Source: a virus | Taxonomy: Duplodnaviria; Heunggongvirae; Uroviricota; Caudoviricetes | Virus record (IMG/VR): IMGVR_UViG_3300025326_000020 | Length of the DNA stretch: 10,392 nucleotides | Direction: 5' to 3' (one strand) | In this document: positions 1 through 6,150 of the stretch, one piece after another | Layout of the letters: each line of letters starts with the position of its first letter | Numbering within the stretch: the stretch's first letter is position 1 | Position numbers and translations under genes: made by a program | Notes under the pieces: generated by a model | Told to the model about the DNA's origin: nothing | Databases searched by the model: none | Seen by the model: the letters and a program-made list of their open reading frames with translations, nothing else

Positions 1-81
1 TATCACCAATGTTACGGTTGCCCACATTCTTGCCTTTTCTGCTTTTGTTCGTGGTATAACCGGCTTTGTCCGACTAGCCAT
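1..81 (-). CDS. Hypothetical protein, N-terminal 27 codons only (runs off the left edge)
   Basis: ATG at 81-79 preceded by AAAGGGG; open frame MASRTKPVIPRTKAEKARMWATVTLVI to the window edge. Not in the ORF track. Confidence 0.55.
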   Translation of the reverse strand, partial: MASRTKPVIPRTKAEKARMWATVTLVI

Positions 82-323
82 TATTCGGCCCCTTTCAGGT
101 AGGGATGGCATAGGATGGGCTAAAATGTCGGCTTTCGAGGCATTTCGACTCTAATCCGCATAATAGTCCATCCTGCACCATTTCTACCTGAAATGTCGTG
201 TGCTGTCACTGTTTAGGTCTAAATGTCCGATTTGCCGGTTGATTCTGTCCGTTTTGGGTTGGAATCTGCCGCTACGTCCATTATAGCTCGCGCTTTGTGG
301 ACATATGGTACTAATCCGACATT

Positions 324-509
324 TTAGTATGTGACCTGCATCACATTTGTTCTGTCCTTTTTATCGTGTTGTATGATGACTTTACCAATTGCTGATAGTT
401 TGTTGCCAGTTGTGGCGTTTATACCACATGTGCAAGTTGCGGCATAAGTGCCATGTTGTACCTTTTGCACTGTTACATCATGTTTTACGTACTGTGGTAC
501 ATTCATCAT
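324..509 (-). CDS. Small hypothetical protein (61 aa), possible Zn-binding (H10, C26-x-C28, H48)
   Basis: RBS GGAGGA 3 nt before the ATG; co-oriented with neighbours. Confidence 0.75.
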   Translation of the reverse strand: MMNVPQYVKHDVTVQKVQHGTYAATCTCGINATTGNKLSAIGKVIIQHDKKDRTNVMQVTY

Positions 510-520
510 GATTCCTCCTG

Positions 521-842
521 ATATGTCCAGATTTAGGCTGCCATGCCTGATTTATTGTACTTAGAACATTTGCCCGATTTCCAACAATTGCTCTGATAGG
601 TAATGGAATTCGACATTTGTCCGATTTGAGTGGTATTCGCATGATTCCCACCATCTTACCACAATGGTGGGATTGTCCGGTTCGGTAATGTATGGGATGA
701 CTTTAGTCACTTTGCCCACACATGTACCTGTTTCGCACATTTGTACTTTTTCGATAATATCCTGCCTAGTTACGATGGTTCCTACCTTTAAGCTCATGTT
801 TGCCCCTTTTGATAGGGCATGGCAGTCTAAAACTAGACATAT
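521..842. repeat. Gene-enclosing inverted repeat 1 (arms 521-547 and 816-842)
   Basis: ATATGTCCAGATTTAGGCTGCCATGCC versus reverse complement of the right arm ATATGTCTAGTTTTAGACTGCCATGCC; 24/27. Confidence 0.9.
561..797 (-). CDS. Hypothetical protein (78 aa), possibly an SH3/KOW-like beta barrel
   Basis: RBS AAGGGG; LKVGTIV...VGKVTKV...IVVRW pattern; exactly enclosed by the 521-547/816-842 inverted repeat. Confidence 0.8.
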   Translation of the reverse strand: MSLKVGTIVTRQDIIEKVQMCETGTCVGKVTKVIPYITEPDNPTIVVRWWESCEYHSNRTNVEFHYLSEQLLEIGQMF

Positions 843-1201
843 ACGGATATAACGGGGTATGGGTGGTTTGGGGGTTTAGTAGGACTCTACGTAGTATGCA
901 GTAGTTTCAGTGGAAAAGTCCCAATCTTCCCATTGGTCCACATCGCCCATAATGCCTGGATCTTCTGATATGTCCTTGATGTCCTCTAGGAGGTACATAA
1001 GGCTTTCATCCGAATCGTCCTCTTTGAGCAATTTCTCCACATGTGTCTTTAATGTCCGAATTGCTTCCGGAAATGTGTCGAAATCGCCCAAAGGGGTACC
1101 TGTCAGACTTTCGTCATCAATCGGCTGATATGATACAGACCATCCCATTTTGTCCTCTTTCGAGATATAGTTACCCATACCCCGATATATCCGTACATGT
1201 C
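836..1201. repeat. Gene-enclosing inverted repeat 2 (836-864 and 1173-1201)
   Basis: GACATATACGGATATAACGGGGTATGGGT versus GACATGTACGGATATATCGGGGTATGGGT; 27/29. Confidence 0.95.
876..1148 (-). CDS. Highly acidic hypothetical protein (90 aa); start revised from 1349 to 1148
   Basis: Motif GAGGACAAA-ATG at 1148; MGWSVSYQPIDDES...; the track's 5' extension crosses repeat arms and overlaps the upstream gene. Confidence 0.8.
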   Translation of the reverse strand: MGWSVSYQPIDDESLTGTPLGDFDTFPEAIRTLKTHVEKLLKEDDSDESLMYLLEDIKDISEDPGIMGDVDQWEDWDFSTETTAYYVESY

Positions 1202-1202
1202 C

Positions 1203-1553
1203 ACACATATCCAACTTTAACCTACCTTGTGCTGATTTGGAAGGTTTTGCTACTATGTCACGGTTTGTGGTGGAATGTCCGATTTGGGAGGCTTTGAGGG
1301 TTGTTCCCGATCTGTCGCTCTTGTCATAAGAGCAGCCTGATCTTCCCATTCGTCCACATATTGGGTGTTATGGGACATACCATCCCATTCGTCGTAGTTT
1401 ATCCACTTTGCCCGACTATCATCCCAATAGCCCGATTCGTTCTCTTCGCGCATTGTGCGGCGATTGTACTCTTCTTCCGCATAGTCGCGTTCATCACTAT
1501 TGTTCATTTTGCCCACCTTTGTCTGACAAGGTAGGATAGAGCTGGATATGTGT
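1203..1553. repeat. Gene-enclosing inverted repeat 3 (1203-1230 and 1526-1553)
   Basis: ACACATATCCAACTTTAACCTACCTTGT versus ACACATATCCAGCTCTATCCTACCTTGT; 25/28. Confidence 0.9.
1253..1507 (-). CDS. Acidic, Y/W-rich hypothetical protein (84 aa); start revised to 1507
   Basis: AAAGGTGGGCAAA-ATG; MNNSDERDYAEEEY...; enclosed by the 1203-1230/1526-1553 inverted repeat. Confidence 0.7.
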   Translation of the reverse strand: MNNSDERDYAEEEYNRRTMREENESGYWDDSRAKWINYDEWDGMSHNTQYVDEWEDQAALMTRATDREQPSKPPKSDIPPQTVT

Positions 1554-1846
1554 TGGTATAGTAGCTTTAGACCGGCATGTCCGTTTTGTACTAGTTGTTG
1601 GTAAGTGAGGCGAAATCTGCCTTTTCGGCGATAAAGCGAACATCCTCCTTAATGTGCAGCAATGTCTCAATTGCTACAATTCCTGCCTCAATGCGGCTTT
1701 CGTCGCTTTCTGCACTAACTAGATCAAATGTGGCCTTTGTGTAGGTTGCCACCAATTGTCCGAAATGCTTCATAAAGGCGTTAACGTCCATTTTGTCCTC
1801 CAAAGGATGATTTGGTAGGACATGCCGGTTTAGAGCTACTATACCA
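1554..1846. repeat. Gene-enclosing inverted repeat 4 (1554-1582 and 1818-1846)
   Basis: TGGTATAGTAGCTTTAGACCGGCATGTCC versus TGGTATAGTAGCTCTAAACCGGCATGTCC; 27/29. Confidence 0.95.
1591..1791 (-). CDS. Hypothetical helical protein (66 aa); start revised to 1791
   Basis: GGAGGACAAA-ATG; MDVNAFMKHFGQLV... Confidence 0.8.
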   Translation of the reverse strand: MDVNAFMKHFGQLVATYTKATFDLVSAESDESRIEAGIVAIETLLHIKEDVRFIAEKADFASLTNN

Positions 1847-1847
1847 T

Positions 1848-2185
1848 GGATCATCTGGTTTATGGAGGTATGTTGGGCATTGTGCGGATTTAGCGGGTAA
1901 TTGCCTTTCGAGTAGGATCGTACGAATTGCGCCATGCGTTCCTAATGTCACGAAGTGCCCTGCTAGTAGCCAGTTTGTCCGTTTCGTCCTCAATGCCAGA
2001 CATGTCTACCATTCGATAGATTGCCTCGAATGAGGTAGTCAGTCCGATTAGTCGCATGAGTCCCTTAACTACTGACCTGTGGATTTTGCCCGAAGGATGC
2101 GGGTTTGGCCACATTTGCGCCCAAATGTCCATTTTGTGCTCCTTGTCAGGTTTTGCCCGACATACCCCCATAGACCAGATGATCC
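1848..2185. repeat. Gene-enclosing inverted repeat 5 (1848-1879 and 2154-2185)
   Basis: GGATCATCTGGTTTATGGAGGTATGTTGGGCA versus GGATCATCTGGTCTATGGGGGTATGTCGGGCA; 29/32. Confidence 0.95.
1890..2132 (-). CDS. Hypothetical protein (80 aa); start revised to 2132
   Basis: AAGGAGCACAAA-ATG; MDIWAQMWPNPHPSGK... Confidence 0.8.
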   Translation of the reverse strand: MDIWAQMWPNPHPSGKIHRSVVKGLMRLIGLTTSFEAIYRMVDMSGIEDETDKLATSRALRDIRNAWRNSYDPTRKAITR

Positions 2186-2342
2186 CTATTTACCCCTCCC
2201 TGTCCATATGTGTCCGGATTTGTGACGTATTGTCAGGGAGTCACCGATTCCTTCGGAAATGTTCAATTCTTGAGGACGTATCCGTATCCGTCCCTATATG
2301 TCGGTATTTGTCCTGACATGTCCGAATTTGTCGGTGCATCTT

Positions 2343-2640
2343 GGACTTACTACCTTCTGTCGGACATGTACGACATGCCCGATTTTTACCAGGTGTACCT
2401 TGGGTACTGGTTTCGGTTGATTTGATACATTTTGACCGCAATGTCCGTTTCGTACTCGATGACCGACATGTCAGGTTCCCCACACATGTCCAGAATGCCG
2501 AAAATGTCCATTATGTGCAGTTTTTCCATTATCTTCTCATATGCCCGCTTTGTCCCTTTACGCAACAATTCGTATGAATCATCCATTTTGTCTCCTTTGT
2601 GAACATTTATCGTACATGTCCGATAGGAGGTAGTAAGTCC
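2343..2640. repeat. Gene-enclosing inverted repeat 6 (2343-2373 and 2610-2640)
   Basis: GGACTTACTACCTTCTGTCGGACATGTACGA versus GGACTTACTACCTCCTATCGGACATGTACGA; 29/31. Confidence 0.95.
2386..2586 (-). CDS. Hypothetical protein (66 aa); start revised to 2586
   Basis: AAAGGAGACAAA-ATG; MDDSYELLRKGTKRAY... Confidence 0.8.
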   Translation of the reverse strand: MDDSYELLRKGTKRAYEKIMEKLHIMDIFGILDMCGEPDMSVIEYETDIAVKMYQINRNQYPRYTW

Positions 2641-2660
2641 TATTTCTACCGATAAGACCA

Positions 2661-3026
2661 ACATTTCCAGGTTTAAATGCATATGTCCGCTTTGAGTGGG
2701 TTTGTGCTACTTTACAGTGATTGTCCCGTTAGGGAGCTTTTCAACTGTTGCGTACCATTTGCGACTTGTGTACGGATTTGGACCAACAACGGTGTATTTG
2801 ATACCAATGTCCATATTGTCCATCATGACCGTTTTGCCTGCGTTTGGTCCAAATGCGTCAGTTACGTAGAATTCCACCTTTGTCGGGTACGTGGCGATTC
2901 TACCCTTAAGCTCCTTTTTGGTTGGAATGTCCGCATTGGTGTTAATATCTCTTGCGCCCACGTTTACGTACATTTGTGCTCCTTGTCCGATTTTATACGG
3001 ACATATGCACATAGACCCGGAAATGT
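2661..3026. repeat. Gene-enclosing inverted repeat 7 (2661-2689 and 2998-3026; gapped extension to 2648/3042)
   Basis: ACATTTCCAGGTTTAAATGCATATGTCCG versus ACATTTCCGGGTCTATGTGCATATGTCCG; 25/29. Confidence 0.9.
2707..2973 (-). CDS. Phage hypothetical protein (88 aa); start revised to 2973
   Basis: AAGGAGCACAA-ATG. TKKELK...VVGPNPYTSRKWYATV resembles, from memory, a small unknown-function family in actinobacterial phages; not verified by search. Confidence 0.8.
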   Translation of the reverse strand: MYVNVGARDINTNADIPTKKELKGRIATYPTKVEFYVTDAFGPNAGKTVMMDNMDIGIKYTVVGPNPYTSRKWYATVEKLPNGTITVK

Positions 3027-3028
3027 CC

Positions 3029-3333
3029 TGGTTTGTATCGGTTTAGACGGGTATGTCCGAAAATGTACTAGATCGTGCAGTTTTGGAATGCTTCGAAGGC
3101 ATTTGCCCATTCGTGGGCTGAATGCCAGATTCGCACCCAAATGAGATCATTGCCCCATATGCGCACTATCTCCACATAGTACCAATTGTCCATCCTGTCC
3201 GGTTTGCTTGCTTTGACCAGAATGGCCATTAGGTCAGGATTGTCATAAAACTTCCTTGCTGCTACGATGTGTCCCATTTTGTCCTCCATTGTCCGTTTTG
3301 AGAGGACATACCCGTTTAGACCGATACAAACCA
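3029..3333. repeat. Gene-enclosing inverted repeat 8 (3029-3058 and 3304-3333)
   Basis: TGGTTTGTATCGGTTTAGACGGGTATGTCC versus TGGTTTGTATCGGTCTAAACGGGTATGTCC; 28/30. Confidence 0.95.
3068..3277 (-). CDS. Hypothetical protein (69 aa); start revised to 3277
   Basis: GGAGGACAAA-ATG; MGHIVAARKFYDNPD... Confidence 0.8.
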   Translation of the reverse strand: MGHIVAARKFYDNPDLMAILVKASKPDRMDNWYYVEIVRIWGNDLIWVRIWHSAHEWANAFEAFQNCTI

Positions 3334-3355
3334 AAAGGCATAGTTTCGTGCCTTT
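3334..3355. other. Local hairpin (7-bp stem) at the head of the left gene block
   Basis: AAAGGCA-TAGTTTCG-TGCCTTT; abuts repeat 8. Followed by UUGGUUUG on the minus strand, so a weak terminator is possible. Confidence 0.5.
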
Positions 3356-3368
3356 GTCCGGTTCTGTC

Positions 3369-3410
3369 ACTATTGACTTATTAAGTAACGGTTTGACTGG
3401 GTTTCACCGG
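3369..3410 (-). promoter_or_regulatory. Conserved 42-bp element, copy 1 (candidate promoter or operator of the left gene block)
   Basis: 33/42 identical to 5328-5369; both copies lie directly upstream of a minus-strand gene block. Function is inferred. Confidence 0.5.
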
Positions 3411-3684
3411 ATTTCTACCGTTCCCAGCCGGTTTGGTATCTAATGCCGTCTTTTGTCCGATTCGGTGCTTTTTTGCTACTTTCAGTCTACTCTCGCCTAG
3501 TTTGGGCTGATTTATCATGATATGACCGATTTACCAGCTTATAGCAGGGCAAGTTTTGTACCGATTTAGCGGGATATGACGGATATGTCCGATTTACCGT
3601 ATATTCGGGGCAAACTGGACATGATCTTGTGAGATTTGTCACACCACTAAATCCACTCAACAGTGGTAATATCCGGACAAGTGC

Positions 3685-3973
3685 TAGATTGGGTAGATAT
3701 GAACTGGTATGTCCGTTTTGACTAGTTTAGGCTGTATCCTGCTGGTATGTACTCACTTGTCACTCTTGGCATGAAATGTACGTATTCGTCTGTCTTGTGC
3801 CAAATTACCTCTTTTGGGAGGTTTTCGAGTCGTGTGTACAGGTTTGACCGCTTTCGTCCTAGAATGTTCCAAACGCTAACTTTGCGGTGTTTGCCTGAAT
3901 AGCCCATTTTTGTCTCCTATGTCCGTTTTGTCTGCTGGGAAGCGGACATACCAGTACAAATCTACCCAATCTA
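3685..3973. repeat. Gene-enclosing inverted repeat 9 (3685-3715 and 3943-3973)
   Basis: TAGATTGGGTAGATATGAACTGGTATGTCCG versus TAGATTGGGTAGATTTGTACTGGTATGTCCG; 29/31. Confidence 0.95.
3722..3907 (-). CDS. Basic hypothetical protein (61 aa)
   Basis: AGGAGACAAAA-ATG; MGYSGKHRKVSVW... Confidence 0.8.
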   Translation of the reverse strand: MGYSGKHRKVSVWNILGRKRSNLYTRLENLPKEVIWHKTDEYVHFMPRVTSEYIPAGYSLN

Positions 3974-4235
3974 CGCATATCCGGATAAAAGAGCATATGT
4001 CCGTTTTGGGTGGTTAAATGCGGGTTAGTGACATTTTGAACGCATGCTGGGCATTTGTCGTGATTGTCTGCAAATGCACTATTGTGTCACACTTTGCCCT
4101 GCTGTGACACCTTTCGCACGTTTCCTTGTGATTCATTGCGTTTAGTCTGGCTTTGTCCCATTCTGCCCACAAATCTACCATTTTGTCCTCCATGTCCTAA
4201 ATGGGTGGACATATGCTCATTTATCCGGACATGCG
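3974..4235. repeat. Gene-enclosing inverted repeat 10 (3974-4002 and 4207-4235)
   Basis: CGCATATCCGGATAAAAGAGCATATGTCC versus CGCATGTCCGGATAAATGAGCATATGTCC; 27/29. Confidence 0.95.
4014..4181 (-). CDS. Hypothetical 55-aa protein with an H-x3-C-x2-C-x5-C putative Zn site (not in ORF track)
   Basis: GGAGGACAAA-ATG at 4181; MVDLWAEWDKARLNAMNHKETCERCHSRAKCDTIVHLQTITTNAQHAFKMSLTRI; TAA at 4016-4014; enclosed by its own inverted repeat. Confidence 0.8.
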   Translation of the reverse strand: MVDLWAEWDKARLNAMNHKETCERCHSRAKCDTIVHLQTITTNAQHAFKMSLTRI

Positions 4236-4236
4236 C

Positions 4237-4610
4237 GCATTTGTCCAGGTATGTGATGGTATGTCCGCTTTGTCAGTTACATTCCAAATGCCTCACTAAG
4301 CCACATTTGGGCTGCTTCCTCCTCATCTGAGGTGGTTAGTACCAATTGAGGGTTGTTGCCCTCTTTGTCCGTTTTGGACACCTGGTACCCATTTGTGAAA
4401 GTTGCCACAAATGAGTGAACTTGCACCAGTTGTACCAAAACGTCCTCATTGTCCCATTTCTGGGCTTCTGCGGTGGTTAAGTAGGAAAAAGGCTCATCTA
4501 CAACACTTTGCCCTACATGTCCAATTTGGGTACGATCTGACATGATATGCTCCTTTTGTTCGTTTTGTGCAAACCGAAACGGACATACCATCACAAACCC
4601 GGACAAATGC
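4237..4610. repeat. Gene-enclosing inverted repeat 11 (4237-4267 and 4580-4610)
   Basis: GCATTTGTCCAGGTATGTGATGGTATGTCCG versus GCATTTGTCCGGGTTTGTGATGGTATGTCCG; 29/31. Confidence 0.95.
4277..4543 (-). CDS. Hypothetical protein (88 aa); start revised to 4543
   Basis: AAAGGAGCATATC-ATG; MSDRTQIGHVGQSV... Confidence 0.75.
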   Translation of the reverse strand: MSDRTQIGHVGQSVVDEPFSYLTTAEAQKWDNEDVLVQLVQVHSFVATFTNGYQVSKTDKEGNNPQLVLTTSDEEEAAQMWLSEAFGM

Positions 4611-4611
4611 T

Positions 4612-4965
4612 GACTTATCCGGATTTAGGGGTGTATGTCCTTTTACGACCTATTTGACTAGATCGCGCCGATTTTCCACGGTTCGACCTCTATGGTCGCT
4701 TCGCGTAGAATGTCGGTTGCCTCACCATTGTCGTTTATGAGGCATTCGCTCATAATGACCGTATTGCCCAAATTGGGCAATCTGACCACTACGTAGTATT
4801 TGTCCTCATTGTCGGGAGTGAGGAAATTCTCCTCATATCCCACAACTGTCCCGATTTGCACCCGGAAGTCGTCTTTGTCCAAATAGTACTGAGCGTCCAT
4901 GATTGTCTCCTTTGTCCATTTTACTTGGATTTGGGAGGACATACACCCTTAGATCCGGATAAGTC
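4612..4965. repeat. Gene-enclosing inverted repeat 12 (4612-4641 and 4936-4965)
   Basis: GACTTATCCGGATTTAGGGGTGTATGTCCT versus GACTTATCCGGATCTAAGGGTGTATGTCCT; 28/30. Confidence 0.95.
4658..4900 (-). CDS. Acidic hypothetical protein (80 aa), possibly SH3-like; start revised to 4900
   Basis: AAAGGAGACAATC-ATG; MDAQYYLDKDDFRVQIGTVVG... Confidence 0.8.
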   Translation of the reverse strand: MDAQYYLDKDDFRVQIGTVVGYEENFLTPDNEDKYYVVVRLPNLGNTVIMSECLINDNGEATDILREATIEVEPWKIGAI

Positions 4966-4972
4966 TCATTTG

Positions 4973-5290
4973 CCTCACATGTACCCTATGTCCGACATGT
5001 CCGTTTTTCCTACTTTAGGACTTTTTGGTCCTGATTGTCGGTCCTGTGTAGCTTGTCGACATTACGGCATAGATGAGGTTTGTCTCCTTTGGCCTGTTTC
5101 CATCCAGTACGTCCGATGTGACCCATTCTGTCCGTTCTAGCCGGGTTGCGAAGATTGCCCCATCTTTCCATTCTGTCACGGTCCATACCTCTCGTAACAA
5201 TTCGTATGAATTGTCCATTTTGTCCATTTTGTCTCCTATGTCCGTTTCTGCCCGGGGAGCGGACATGTCGGATATGGGGGACATGTGAGG
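4973..5290. repeat. Gene-enclosing inverted repeat 13 (4973-5003 and 5260-5290)
   Basis: CCTCACATGTACCCTATGTCCGACATGTCCG versus CCTCACATGTCCCCCATATCCGACATGTCCG; 28/31. Confidence 0.95.
5015..5227 (-). CDS. Hypothetical protein (70 aa); start revised to 5227 (or 5218)
   Basis: AGGAGACAAA-ATG; MDKMDNSYELLREVW... Confidence 0.75.
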   Translation of the reverse strand: MDKMDNSYELLREVWTVTEWKDGAIFATRLERTEWVTSDVLDGNRPKETNLIYAVMSTSYTGPTIRTKKS

Positions 5291-5292
5291 TT

Positions 5293-5312
5293 TAGCGGGA
5301 TAGCTCCCGCTA
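5293..5312. other. Local hairpin (8-bp stem) at the head of the five-gene block
   Basis: TAGCGGGA-TAGC-TCCCGCTA, between repeat 13 and the outer arm. Confidence 0.6.
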
Positions 5313-5327
5313 TGTCCGGATATCTCC

Positions 5328-5369
5328 ACTGTTGAGTTGATAAGTAACGATTTGGAGGGATTTCACCGG
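5328..5369 (-). promoter_or_regulatory. Conserved 42-bp element, copy 2
   Basis: Minus-strand consensus CCGGTGAAA-N8-AAA-N-CGTTACTTA; overlaps the outer stem arm. Confidence 0.5.
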
Positions 5370-5428
5370 CTTGTCGGATATTTGGGGAATGTCCGATAGT
5401 ACCGTTTCCCGCCCTTTGACCTACTTCA

Positions 5429-5437
5429 AGTATAGCA
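5429..5437 (-). promoter_or_regulatory. Candidate extended -10 element TG-C-TATACT facing the small-gene array
   Basis: Matches TGn-TAnnnT; no recognisable -35. A related TGCTATAAG lies at about 3538-3546, upstream of the other block. Confidence 0.3.
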
Positions 5438-6036
5438 TGGGCCTATTATGTCCATATATCGGATATGTCCGATATATGCGGATAATAGTTGGTGCATATA
5501 TGGTCATATATCCGGACATTTCGGGAATGTCGGACTGCAAATGTCGGCCTTAGTACGATATATCCTGATATAGTAGGGCAAAACGGACAGGGCATACCAG
5601 GGCAATCGCGACAATACCGACAAATCGGACATTTGTGGGTATTCGGGCTAATGGGGCATAGGCCACATATCGGGCACAGCCTGCCCGTATTATGATGATA
5701 TGTCCGGATATAGCGGACTGTGAAATTTGTCACTGGCCGGATATATGCGCATAAATCGGGCACGACCGCTGGCCGGCGCGAGAGTGTTGAAATATACCTT
5801 ATATCGTATATGTCCGATATATGCCCATATAGTAGGGCGCTGCCCTGCCGCCCCCCGCCCTGTCCGATTTGCCCCCTTATAATGTATATACGCGCATATA
5901 GGCTGATTTATCCGATTTAAGCCCATATATGAGGACAAATGGATGTCCTGATATATCGGCATAAATCAGGACAAAGATTAACTATATTACGAAATATCAA
6001 CATAAATCGGACATTCCGGTAGGTTTCGCGAAAATC

Positions 6037-6150
6037 GGTGTATTTTTCAAATGTTAGTAATTTTACATGATGATAGGTTTGTTTTTCAAATGTTAGTAAT
6101 TTTACATGATGATAGGTGTATTTTTCAAATGTTAGTAATTTTACATGATG
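6037..6150. repeat. 39-bp AT-rich tandem repeat, 2.9 copies
   Basis: Unit GGTGTATTTTTCAAATGTTAGTAATTTTACATGATGATA at 6037-6075, 6076-6114 (2 mismatches) and 6115-6150 (partial). Confidence 0.95.

Follow-up and report, generated by a model that had tools for sequence, protein, structure and literature searches.

The early region of an uncultured soil-type tailed phage (Duplodnaviria; Heunggongvirae; Uroviricota; Caudoviricetes), taken from the IMG/VR record IMGVR_UViG_3300025326_000020, contains a block of five small minus-strand genes that is bracketed by a long-range inverted repeat. Read as messenger RNA, each of the five genes is predicted to sit inside a long stem of its own, and the 2 arms of the repeat are predicted to pair around all of them as an outer helix. 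The stretch that was analyzed, called the window here, is 10,392 nt long. The repeat is non-random, and folding models indicate that the outer helix probably forms in RNA. Our favored reading, which we hold at a probability of about 0.4, is that it is a lineage-specific leader-trailer helix in a read-through early RNA, and we give slightly less than an even chance to the outer helix having a selected function at all. Judged by the leaders that could be compared, it is confined to a single block in a single phage and is no general rule for transcription units.

The outer repeat and the predicted fold that it closes

A repeat finder places the arms at 3651-3679 and 5313-5341, each 29 nt long, 90% complementary, and 1633 nt apart. 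In the sense of the minus-strand mRNA, the 25-nt core 3655-3679/5313-5337 pairs at 24 of its 25 positions. The first-pass annotation of this DNA had counted 23 of 25, and direct reading bears that out with 23 Watson-Crick pairs, to which one G·U is added, leaving a central A·A. The lone wobble is a G·U in mRNA sense and a C·A mismatch in plus sense. RNAduplex scores the pairing of the arms at about −43.5 kcal/mol, against −22 for the next-best site of the arm in the window and a mean of −10.4 (SD 3.9) over all window sites. In 300 dinucleotide-preserving shuffles of positions 1-6000, the longest long-range inverted repeat had 18 matched bases, compared with the 26 observed. Both arms lie outside all reading frames, between other helices. 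Three further assemblies of the same phage (L044, L045, and L046) are 99.97-99.98% identical to the window and collinear with it, and because they carry the same arrangement in the same orientation, the repeat is not an assembly artifact.

The annotation had also proposed a nested multibranch fold in which the stems and an 8-bp hairpin follow each other with 0-7 nt between helices. This is what the minus-sense RNA from 5350 to 3640 gives at minimum free energy, with the outer helix, the hairpin, and five gene stems of 28, 27, 33, 29, and 28 bp, joined by linkers of 0, 2, 7, 1, 0, 0, and 6 nt. The 25-bp core of the outer helix extends to as many as 34 bp in this fold, and 22 of the 25 outer pairs have a pair probability of at least 0.9 in a 2451-nt context. 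All five ribosome-binding sites are inside gene-stem loops and none is in the outer helix. The elements of the fold, in the order in which they would be transcribed, are as follows.

5313-5337, minus strand: outer-helix 5' strand, formed by the conserved leader's tail (AACTCAAnAGTG... CCGGACA), with a weak extension to 5341-5349
5293-5312, minus strand: leader hairpin of 8 bp, GC-rich, an insertion relative to 10 leaders of other phages
4973-5290, minus strand: gene stem 1, arms 5260-5290/4973-5003, enclosing the 70-aa gene 5015-5227; compensatory changes in 7 phages
4612-4965, minus strand: gene stem 2, arms 4936-4965/4612-4641, enclosing the 80-aa gene 4658-4900
4237-4610, minus strand: gene stem 3, arms 4577-4610/4237-4270, enclosing the 88-aa gene 4277-4543
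3974-4235, minus strand: gene stem 4, arms 4207-4235/3974-4002, enclosing the 55-aa gene 4014-4181
3685-3973, minus strand: gene stem 5, arms 3943-3973/3685-3715, enclosing the 61-aa gene 3722-3907
3655-3679, minus strand: 3' strand of the outer helix (the "anti-leader"), between the last unit 1 gene stem and the unit 2 palindrome

The gene stems set the standard by which the outer helix can be judged. Besides the five inner ones, the window has at least eight further gene-enclosing stems, and with those of eight relatives we collected 62 distinct stems having arms of 26-36 nt. In 37 of the 62, each arm has YCUAAR and, in mRNA sense, two A·C mismatches stand on either side of 2 bp; this motif is located 13±1 bp from the inner end of the stem, and the 5' arm has UGUCCG at that end. 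Outside the central motif, the 62 stems contain 38 G·U against 10 A·C in mRNA sense (p = 6e-5), and because G·U is the one in excess in that sense, the pairing appears to be selected in the sense RNA and not in DNA or in the antisense strand. The stem of the first gene has homologs in a total of 7 phages, among which double compensatory changes are found at more than 10 paired columns, both A·C columns staying invariant while the neighboring pairs covary. Homologous genes of different phages have stems of differing sequence. On these comparative grounds, selection of the gene stems as sense-RNA structures is well supported.

Two side observations concern the same stems. The two-fold symmetry of the A·C motif (window 516-5290 and 8 related loci) would fit a staggered cut by a dimeric double-strand RNase. 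The hexamer TGTCCG (67-6013) has 38 plus-strand copies before position 6000 and zero after it; one copy is placed at the inner end of each gene-stem arm and another just before each ribosome-binding site, and therefore the 5' arm of a gene stem could pair either locally or with its distal arm.

Leaders, promoters, and the origin of the two arms

The early region is organized as three promoter-plus-leader units, of which the five-gene block is unit 1. A degenerate-pattern search of IMG/VR and metagenomes allowed us to align 12 leaders, 2 from the window and 10 from relatives, representing at least 9 phages. They have a common order, namely, an extended −10 TGnTAnACT without a clear −35, about 50 nt further on a small variable hairpin, and then the core CAAATCGTnACTTAwyAACTCAAnAGTG followed by ..CCGGACA, which is the most conserved noncoding sequence of the region. 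A recognizable −10-like hexamer stands in the −10 column in 11 of the 12, and the upstream TG in 8 of the 12. No consensus secondary structure was found for the 12 leaders. Since these extended −10 promoters are conserved and have no clear −35 box, the early units are most likely transcribed by the host polymerase. A 42-bp element that contains the core had been a candidate for the promoter itself, which we reject, the conserved extended −10 being about 95 nt upstream. The likely promoter is thereby relocated to that extended −10, and from the alignment the 42-bp element is most likely the leader core within the 5' untranslated region (UTR). The features needed for comparing the three units are these.

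5429-5437, minus strand: extended −10 promoter of unit 1, TGCTATACT, a conserved alignment column, with a predicted start near 5422
5338-5380, minus strand: conserved leader element of unit 1 (42-bp element), CCGGTGAAAT..CAAATCGTTACTTATCA, predicted to be unstructured, in the 5' UTR
3628-3643, no strand assigned: unit 2 palindrome TGTGA-N6-TCACA, 8-12 nt from the outer 3' arm and upstream of the unit 2 promoters
3379-3420, minus strand: conserved leader element of unit 2, from the leader alignment
3334-3378, minus strand: unit 2 counterpart of the 5' arm (3356-3378) and of the small hairpin (3334-3355, then a U-rich run), with no partner
93-345, minus strand: start of the third unit, with a palindrome at 330-345, the −10 TATAAT at 280-285, and a leader-like element at 205-250

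As a stretch of aligned sequence, the outer 5' arm is not a dedicated element. It is the tail of the conserved leader, present in all of the relatives for reasons unrelated to an outer helix, and it lies about 85 nt downstream of the predicted start near 5422, within the 5' UTR and not at the RNA end. The 3' arm has a different history. In L002, the sole relative with two canonical units, the last unit 1 gene stem is followed by 19 nt and then by the unit 2 palindrome, and there is no outer arm; the same junction in the window has about 30 extra nt, which are the outer 3' arm. Because the L002 junction is without those nucleotides, the new feature is the insertion of the anti-leader. Both leaders of the phage also have a small hairpin that is absent from the ten other leaders, that of unit 2 (3334-3355) differing from that of unit 1. 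No intrinsic terminator was found near the 3' arm, either between the arms or just after them, so RNA of unit 1 is expected to continue into unit 2, which has −10-like boxes at 3536-3544 and 3484-3492. Thus, with the promoter upstream and no terminator near the 3' arm, no transcript boundary is predicted to fall inside the outer arms, something that the first-pass annotation had said would count against the pairing of unit ends.

As observations apart from this, the unit 2 hairpin at 3334-3355 (minus strand) is followed by UUUUGGUUUG and was flagged as terminator-like, making it a possible attenuator just before the first unit 2 gene stem, and the leader core (3379-3420, 5338-5380, and 205-250) may act as a DNA site or, in RNA, as a linear signal resembling boxA or nut.

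Is each unit closed by an outer stem? The first-pass annotation had seen that the left block starts in the same order, with the 42-bp element at 3379-3420, then 3356-3378, the hairpin at 3334-3355, and the first gene stem, and that 3356-3378 has no partner inside the window. Both observations stand, the best duplex being −14.4 to −15.4 kcal/mol. It had gone on to place the missing partner to the left of position 1, which is now unlikely and has gained no support, though no terminator was found that would stop unit 2 RNA short of that edge. A third unit starts at about 345, and unit 2 consequently ends inside the window; by analogy with unit 1, the unit 2 partner would be expected just right of 345. 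A scan of 1-3300 for a partner of 3356-3384 found none, with a best duplex of −14.4 kcal/mol. The third unit further has a local hairpin 93-127/159-193 (35-nt arms, 27 pairs) and a gene start near 82 running leftward, an order that is matched throughout in L002 and at the palindrome, −10, and gene start in L006. At this same edge, the European Nucleotide Archive (ENA) contig L044 of 40.5 kb stops exactly at window position 1, and an exact pattern from the left end of the window had no match in IMG/VR.

The comparison was widened to 14 leaders by a pairing scan of the 30 nt after the leader core against the downstream sense RNA up to 8.6 kb. Unit 1 of the window scores −42.1 kcal/mol, and all other leaders score −15.4 to −25.4 kcal/mol, which is background. 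For the 12 leaders of relatives, covering 0.4-8.6 kb of downstream sequence (at least 3 kb for 10 of them), there was no partner, and the best values were −15.6 to −25.4 kcal/mol. Three complete relatives have zero long-range inverted repeats of at least 25 nt, and their long-range repeats of 20-24 nt are built from common ATGTCCG motifs. An inverted repeat in L007 at 5422-5462/7419-7459 (73%) was considered as an equivalent and rejected, as it is driven by C/G runs and has no adjoining leader. The idea that the ends of each whole unit pair is therefore kept only in part. The arms of unit 1 are noncoding and would close a sense fold, but the generalization fails, with 0 of 13 other leaders having an outer stem. 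With this negative result, the notion that every transcription unit has a closing outer stem should not be extended to this phage group.

A proposed leader-trailer helix and its rivals

If the outer helix is a leader-trailer helix, transcripts from the unit 1 promoter would include both of its arms. Because all arms are outside reading frames, ribosomes would not open them, whether they belong to the outer helix or to the gene stems. The five gene stems would form first, leaving the outer strands apart by a seven-way junction, and closure should be easy because only about 16 unpaired nt would then separate the strands. The product would be 25 bp of double-stranded RNA, imperfect at its center (A·A and G·U) and in the same length class as the gene stems. 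We infer that it would act as those are thought to, either offering a host enzyme of the RNase III type a double-stranded site or clamping the ends. A cut there would free the five-gene block of its leader and of the read-through into unit 2; alternatively, the block would be held as a compact domain, whatever benefit either might bring. The enzymes would be those of the host, because no RNase III or T7-like RNA polymerase gene was found in the complete relatives. Both searches covered three complete and one partial relative, and the polymerase model was silent in control genomes too, which makes that particular negative weak.

Several points weigh against such a function. The outer helix has A·A plus G·U at its center and lacks the two A·C mismatches around 2 bp that are characteristic of the gene stems, and the GGACA motif in the outer helix has a polarity reversed from that in the gene stems. 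The outer stem is missing from all 13 of the other leaders tested, that of unit 2 in the window included. All available copies of the phage are identical and so offer no covariation. The 5' strand is conserved for another reason, and a single inverted duplication of the leader tail would give the same picture without function. An outer cut would add little if all gene stems are cut in any case. Finally, no gene for the enzyme was found in the three complete relatives.

A neutral scar is almost as likely as a leader-trailer helix, because there is neither conservation of the outer helix nor the mismatch motif of the gene stems within it. By this account, the end of unit 1 received a copy of the leader tail through a short inverted duplication or a recombination event, and the helix, which may form in RNA, is not under selection and has no important role. 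It would explain why the 5' strand is a family-wide leader and the novelty is confined to the 3' strand, which most resembles its own partner, why just one block of one phage has the repeat when 14 leaders are compared, and why the conserved mismatch geometry of the selected gene stems is absent. It is less at ease with a copy that ends cleanly at helix length (25-29 nt) and that came to lie precisely where a linker joins the last gene stem to the regulatory palindrome of the next unit, outside genes. A 25-bp double-stranded RNA in an early transcript is also unlikely to be ignored by host double-strand RNases, and the leader hairpins that this phage has and its relatives lack hint at a reworked leader design.

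A regulatory anti-leader is an unlikely third possibility. The unstructured leader core would be a protein-binding RNA signal (e.g., boxA-like, for an antitermination complex tethered to the polymerase), and the 3' arm would pair at the end of unit 1; variants of it could be the rRNA leader-trailer model or a signal that is turned off by the time the polymerase moves into unit 2. The conservation of the leader core and its lack of a consensus structure in the 12 leaders would agree with this, as would the order of a hairpin, a linear box, and the 5' strand of a long-range helix, which is that of rrn leaders (boxB, boxA, and boxC; PMC10250234). On the other hand, the core matches only 8 of the 11 positions, counted by eye, of the boxA consensus GYTCTTTAANA (PMC5725501), which is gamma-proteobacterial and may not be that of the host. 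It misses the functionally tested position C4 and matches the other tested position, T6. The leader element could equally be a DNA site, and the relatives have the leader without a trailer.

Least credible is a DNA-level switch, in which the 29-bp inverted repeats would be sites for inverting the 1.6-kb five-gene segment relative to its promoter, as for Hin, Gin, and Cin: the layout is indeed that of known invertible segments, which have inverted repeats of 26-34 bp around 1-3 kb next to a promoter, and the promoter and leader are just outside the right-hand repeat, but there is one orientation in 4 of 4 assemblies, the arm sequence is the conserved leader itself and not a recombinase site common to other repeats, the 10 small early genes that were tested have no Pfam or PHROG family (the wider genome was not searched for a recombinase), and the many sense-RNA stems of the region explain such repeats better.

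Returning to a leader-trailer helix, the closest known system by analogy is that of rRNA. In the rrn leader-trailer helix, the 5' strand comes after boxB and boxA and includes a conserved box (PMC10250234). The 16S and 23S helices and the outer helix are alike in being 25-40 bp long, with strands about 1.5-3 kb apart in one transcript (PMC10250234), and in the order of a small hairpin, a conserved leader box, and, directly behind the box, the 5' strand. At 1.63 kb, what the outer helix encloses is about as long as 16S rRNA. Both helices are regarded as double-stranded sites for RNase III, putatively so in this phage. Unlike rrn, where a stable RNA is inside, the outer helix would enclose five translated messages, each in its own stem; it is neither conserved nor covarying in the relatives, and the resemblance of the leader to boxA is weak. 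In its fullest form, the analogy would make this a true leader-trailer helix of an mRNA operon, with a boxA-like leader tethered to the polymerase handing its 3' tail to the trailer 1.6 kb downstream, and a two-level fold, in which the panhandles of the genes are nested in a panhandle of the block, being cut out as a rosette of five messages. We think that form unlikely.

Two other systems invite comparison. The early RNase III sites of T7 are local hairpins between genes. T7 and this phage are alike in having a polycistronic early transcript, made by the host polymerase most likely in our case, with double-stranded RNA elements between cistrons that would allow cuts into separate messages. 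The T7 sites are local, each a hairpin of about 50-60 nt, whereas the outer arms here are 1633 nt apart and the helices enclose whole genes or, for the outer one, the whole block. In the icaR mRNA of Staphylococcus aureus, pairing of the 5' UTR with the 3' UTR makes an RNase III substrate and masks the ribosome-binding site, repressing one gene (PMC3868564). As in icaR, two untranslated ends of one bacterial mRNA would pair into a putative RNase III substrate, but the outer helix is without a ribosome-binding site and spans five genes.

End pairing of long bacterial transcripts is well established for rRNA and for very few single mRNAs. A helix closing five already clamped messages would show phages building multilevel RNA architectures for processing or protecting their early messages, and if the five-message rosette is real, no hierarchical processing architecture like that of rRNA would have been described for messenger RNAs before it.

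The surrounding genes and regulatory sites

The window comprises the leftward early region and structural genes. Its right third encodes a portal of the Mu/P23-45 type (PF06074, PF21919), a terminase-like protein, and other structural proteins. Relatives were obtained through the terminase and are IMG/VR phage contigs of 64-81 kb, three of them complete with terminal repeats. A megablast of the window against deposited phages gave no match, and Rfam and tRNA scans of it found nothing. A placement of the host in Chitinophagaceae, offered by one 6.3-kb contig in a genome bin, was discounted in view of the strong GGAG ribosome-binding sites and the weakness of short-contig binning.

Positions 1-5340 hold about 14 small minus-strand genes with a GGAG-type ribosome-binding site at each. 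A Pfam and PHROG search with 10 of them, all five in the block included, gave no family match, and the coding strand is confirmed because several of the small genes have protein homologs in the relatives. Within the block, the gene 4658-4900 has three relatives in IMG/VR at 66-70% identity, and the first and last genes have none there. The last unit 2 gene (324-509) has no clean enclosing stem; its ribosome-binding site is inside the 3' arm of the neighboring stem, and the gene's final codons run into the unit 3 palindrome.

Palindromes of the form TGTGA-N6-TCACA (CRP/FNR-type) are located at 330-345, 3628-3643, and 5719-5734, one upstream of each promoter-leader unit. With one mismatch allowed, there are 5 matches against 0.5 expected, and perfect copies occur in the same place in L002 and L006. 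They are candidates for the operator at which a dimeric regulator, of the CRP family or from the phage, would control the early units.

A 39-bp tandem repeat (2.9 copies, 6037-6150) lies in the large intergenic region from which the early and structural genes diverge; the ENA contig L044 has one copy more, and two Logan contigs break there. The genes 2386-2586 and 5015-5227, otherwise unrelated, have in common their ribosome-binding site and the first residues MD(K)(M)DxSYELLR, which suggests the shuffling of cassettes at a common 5' end.

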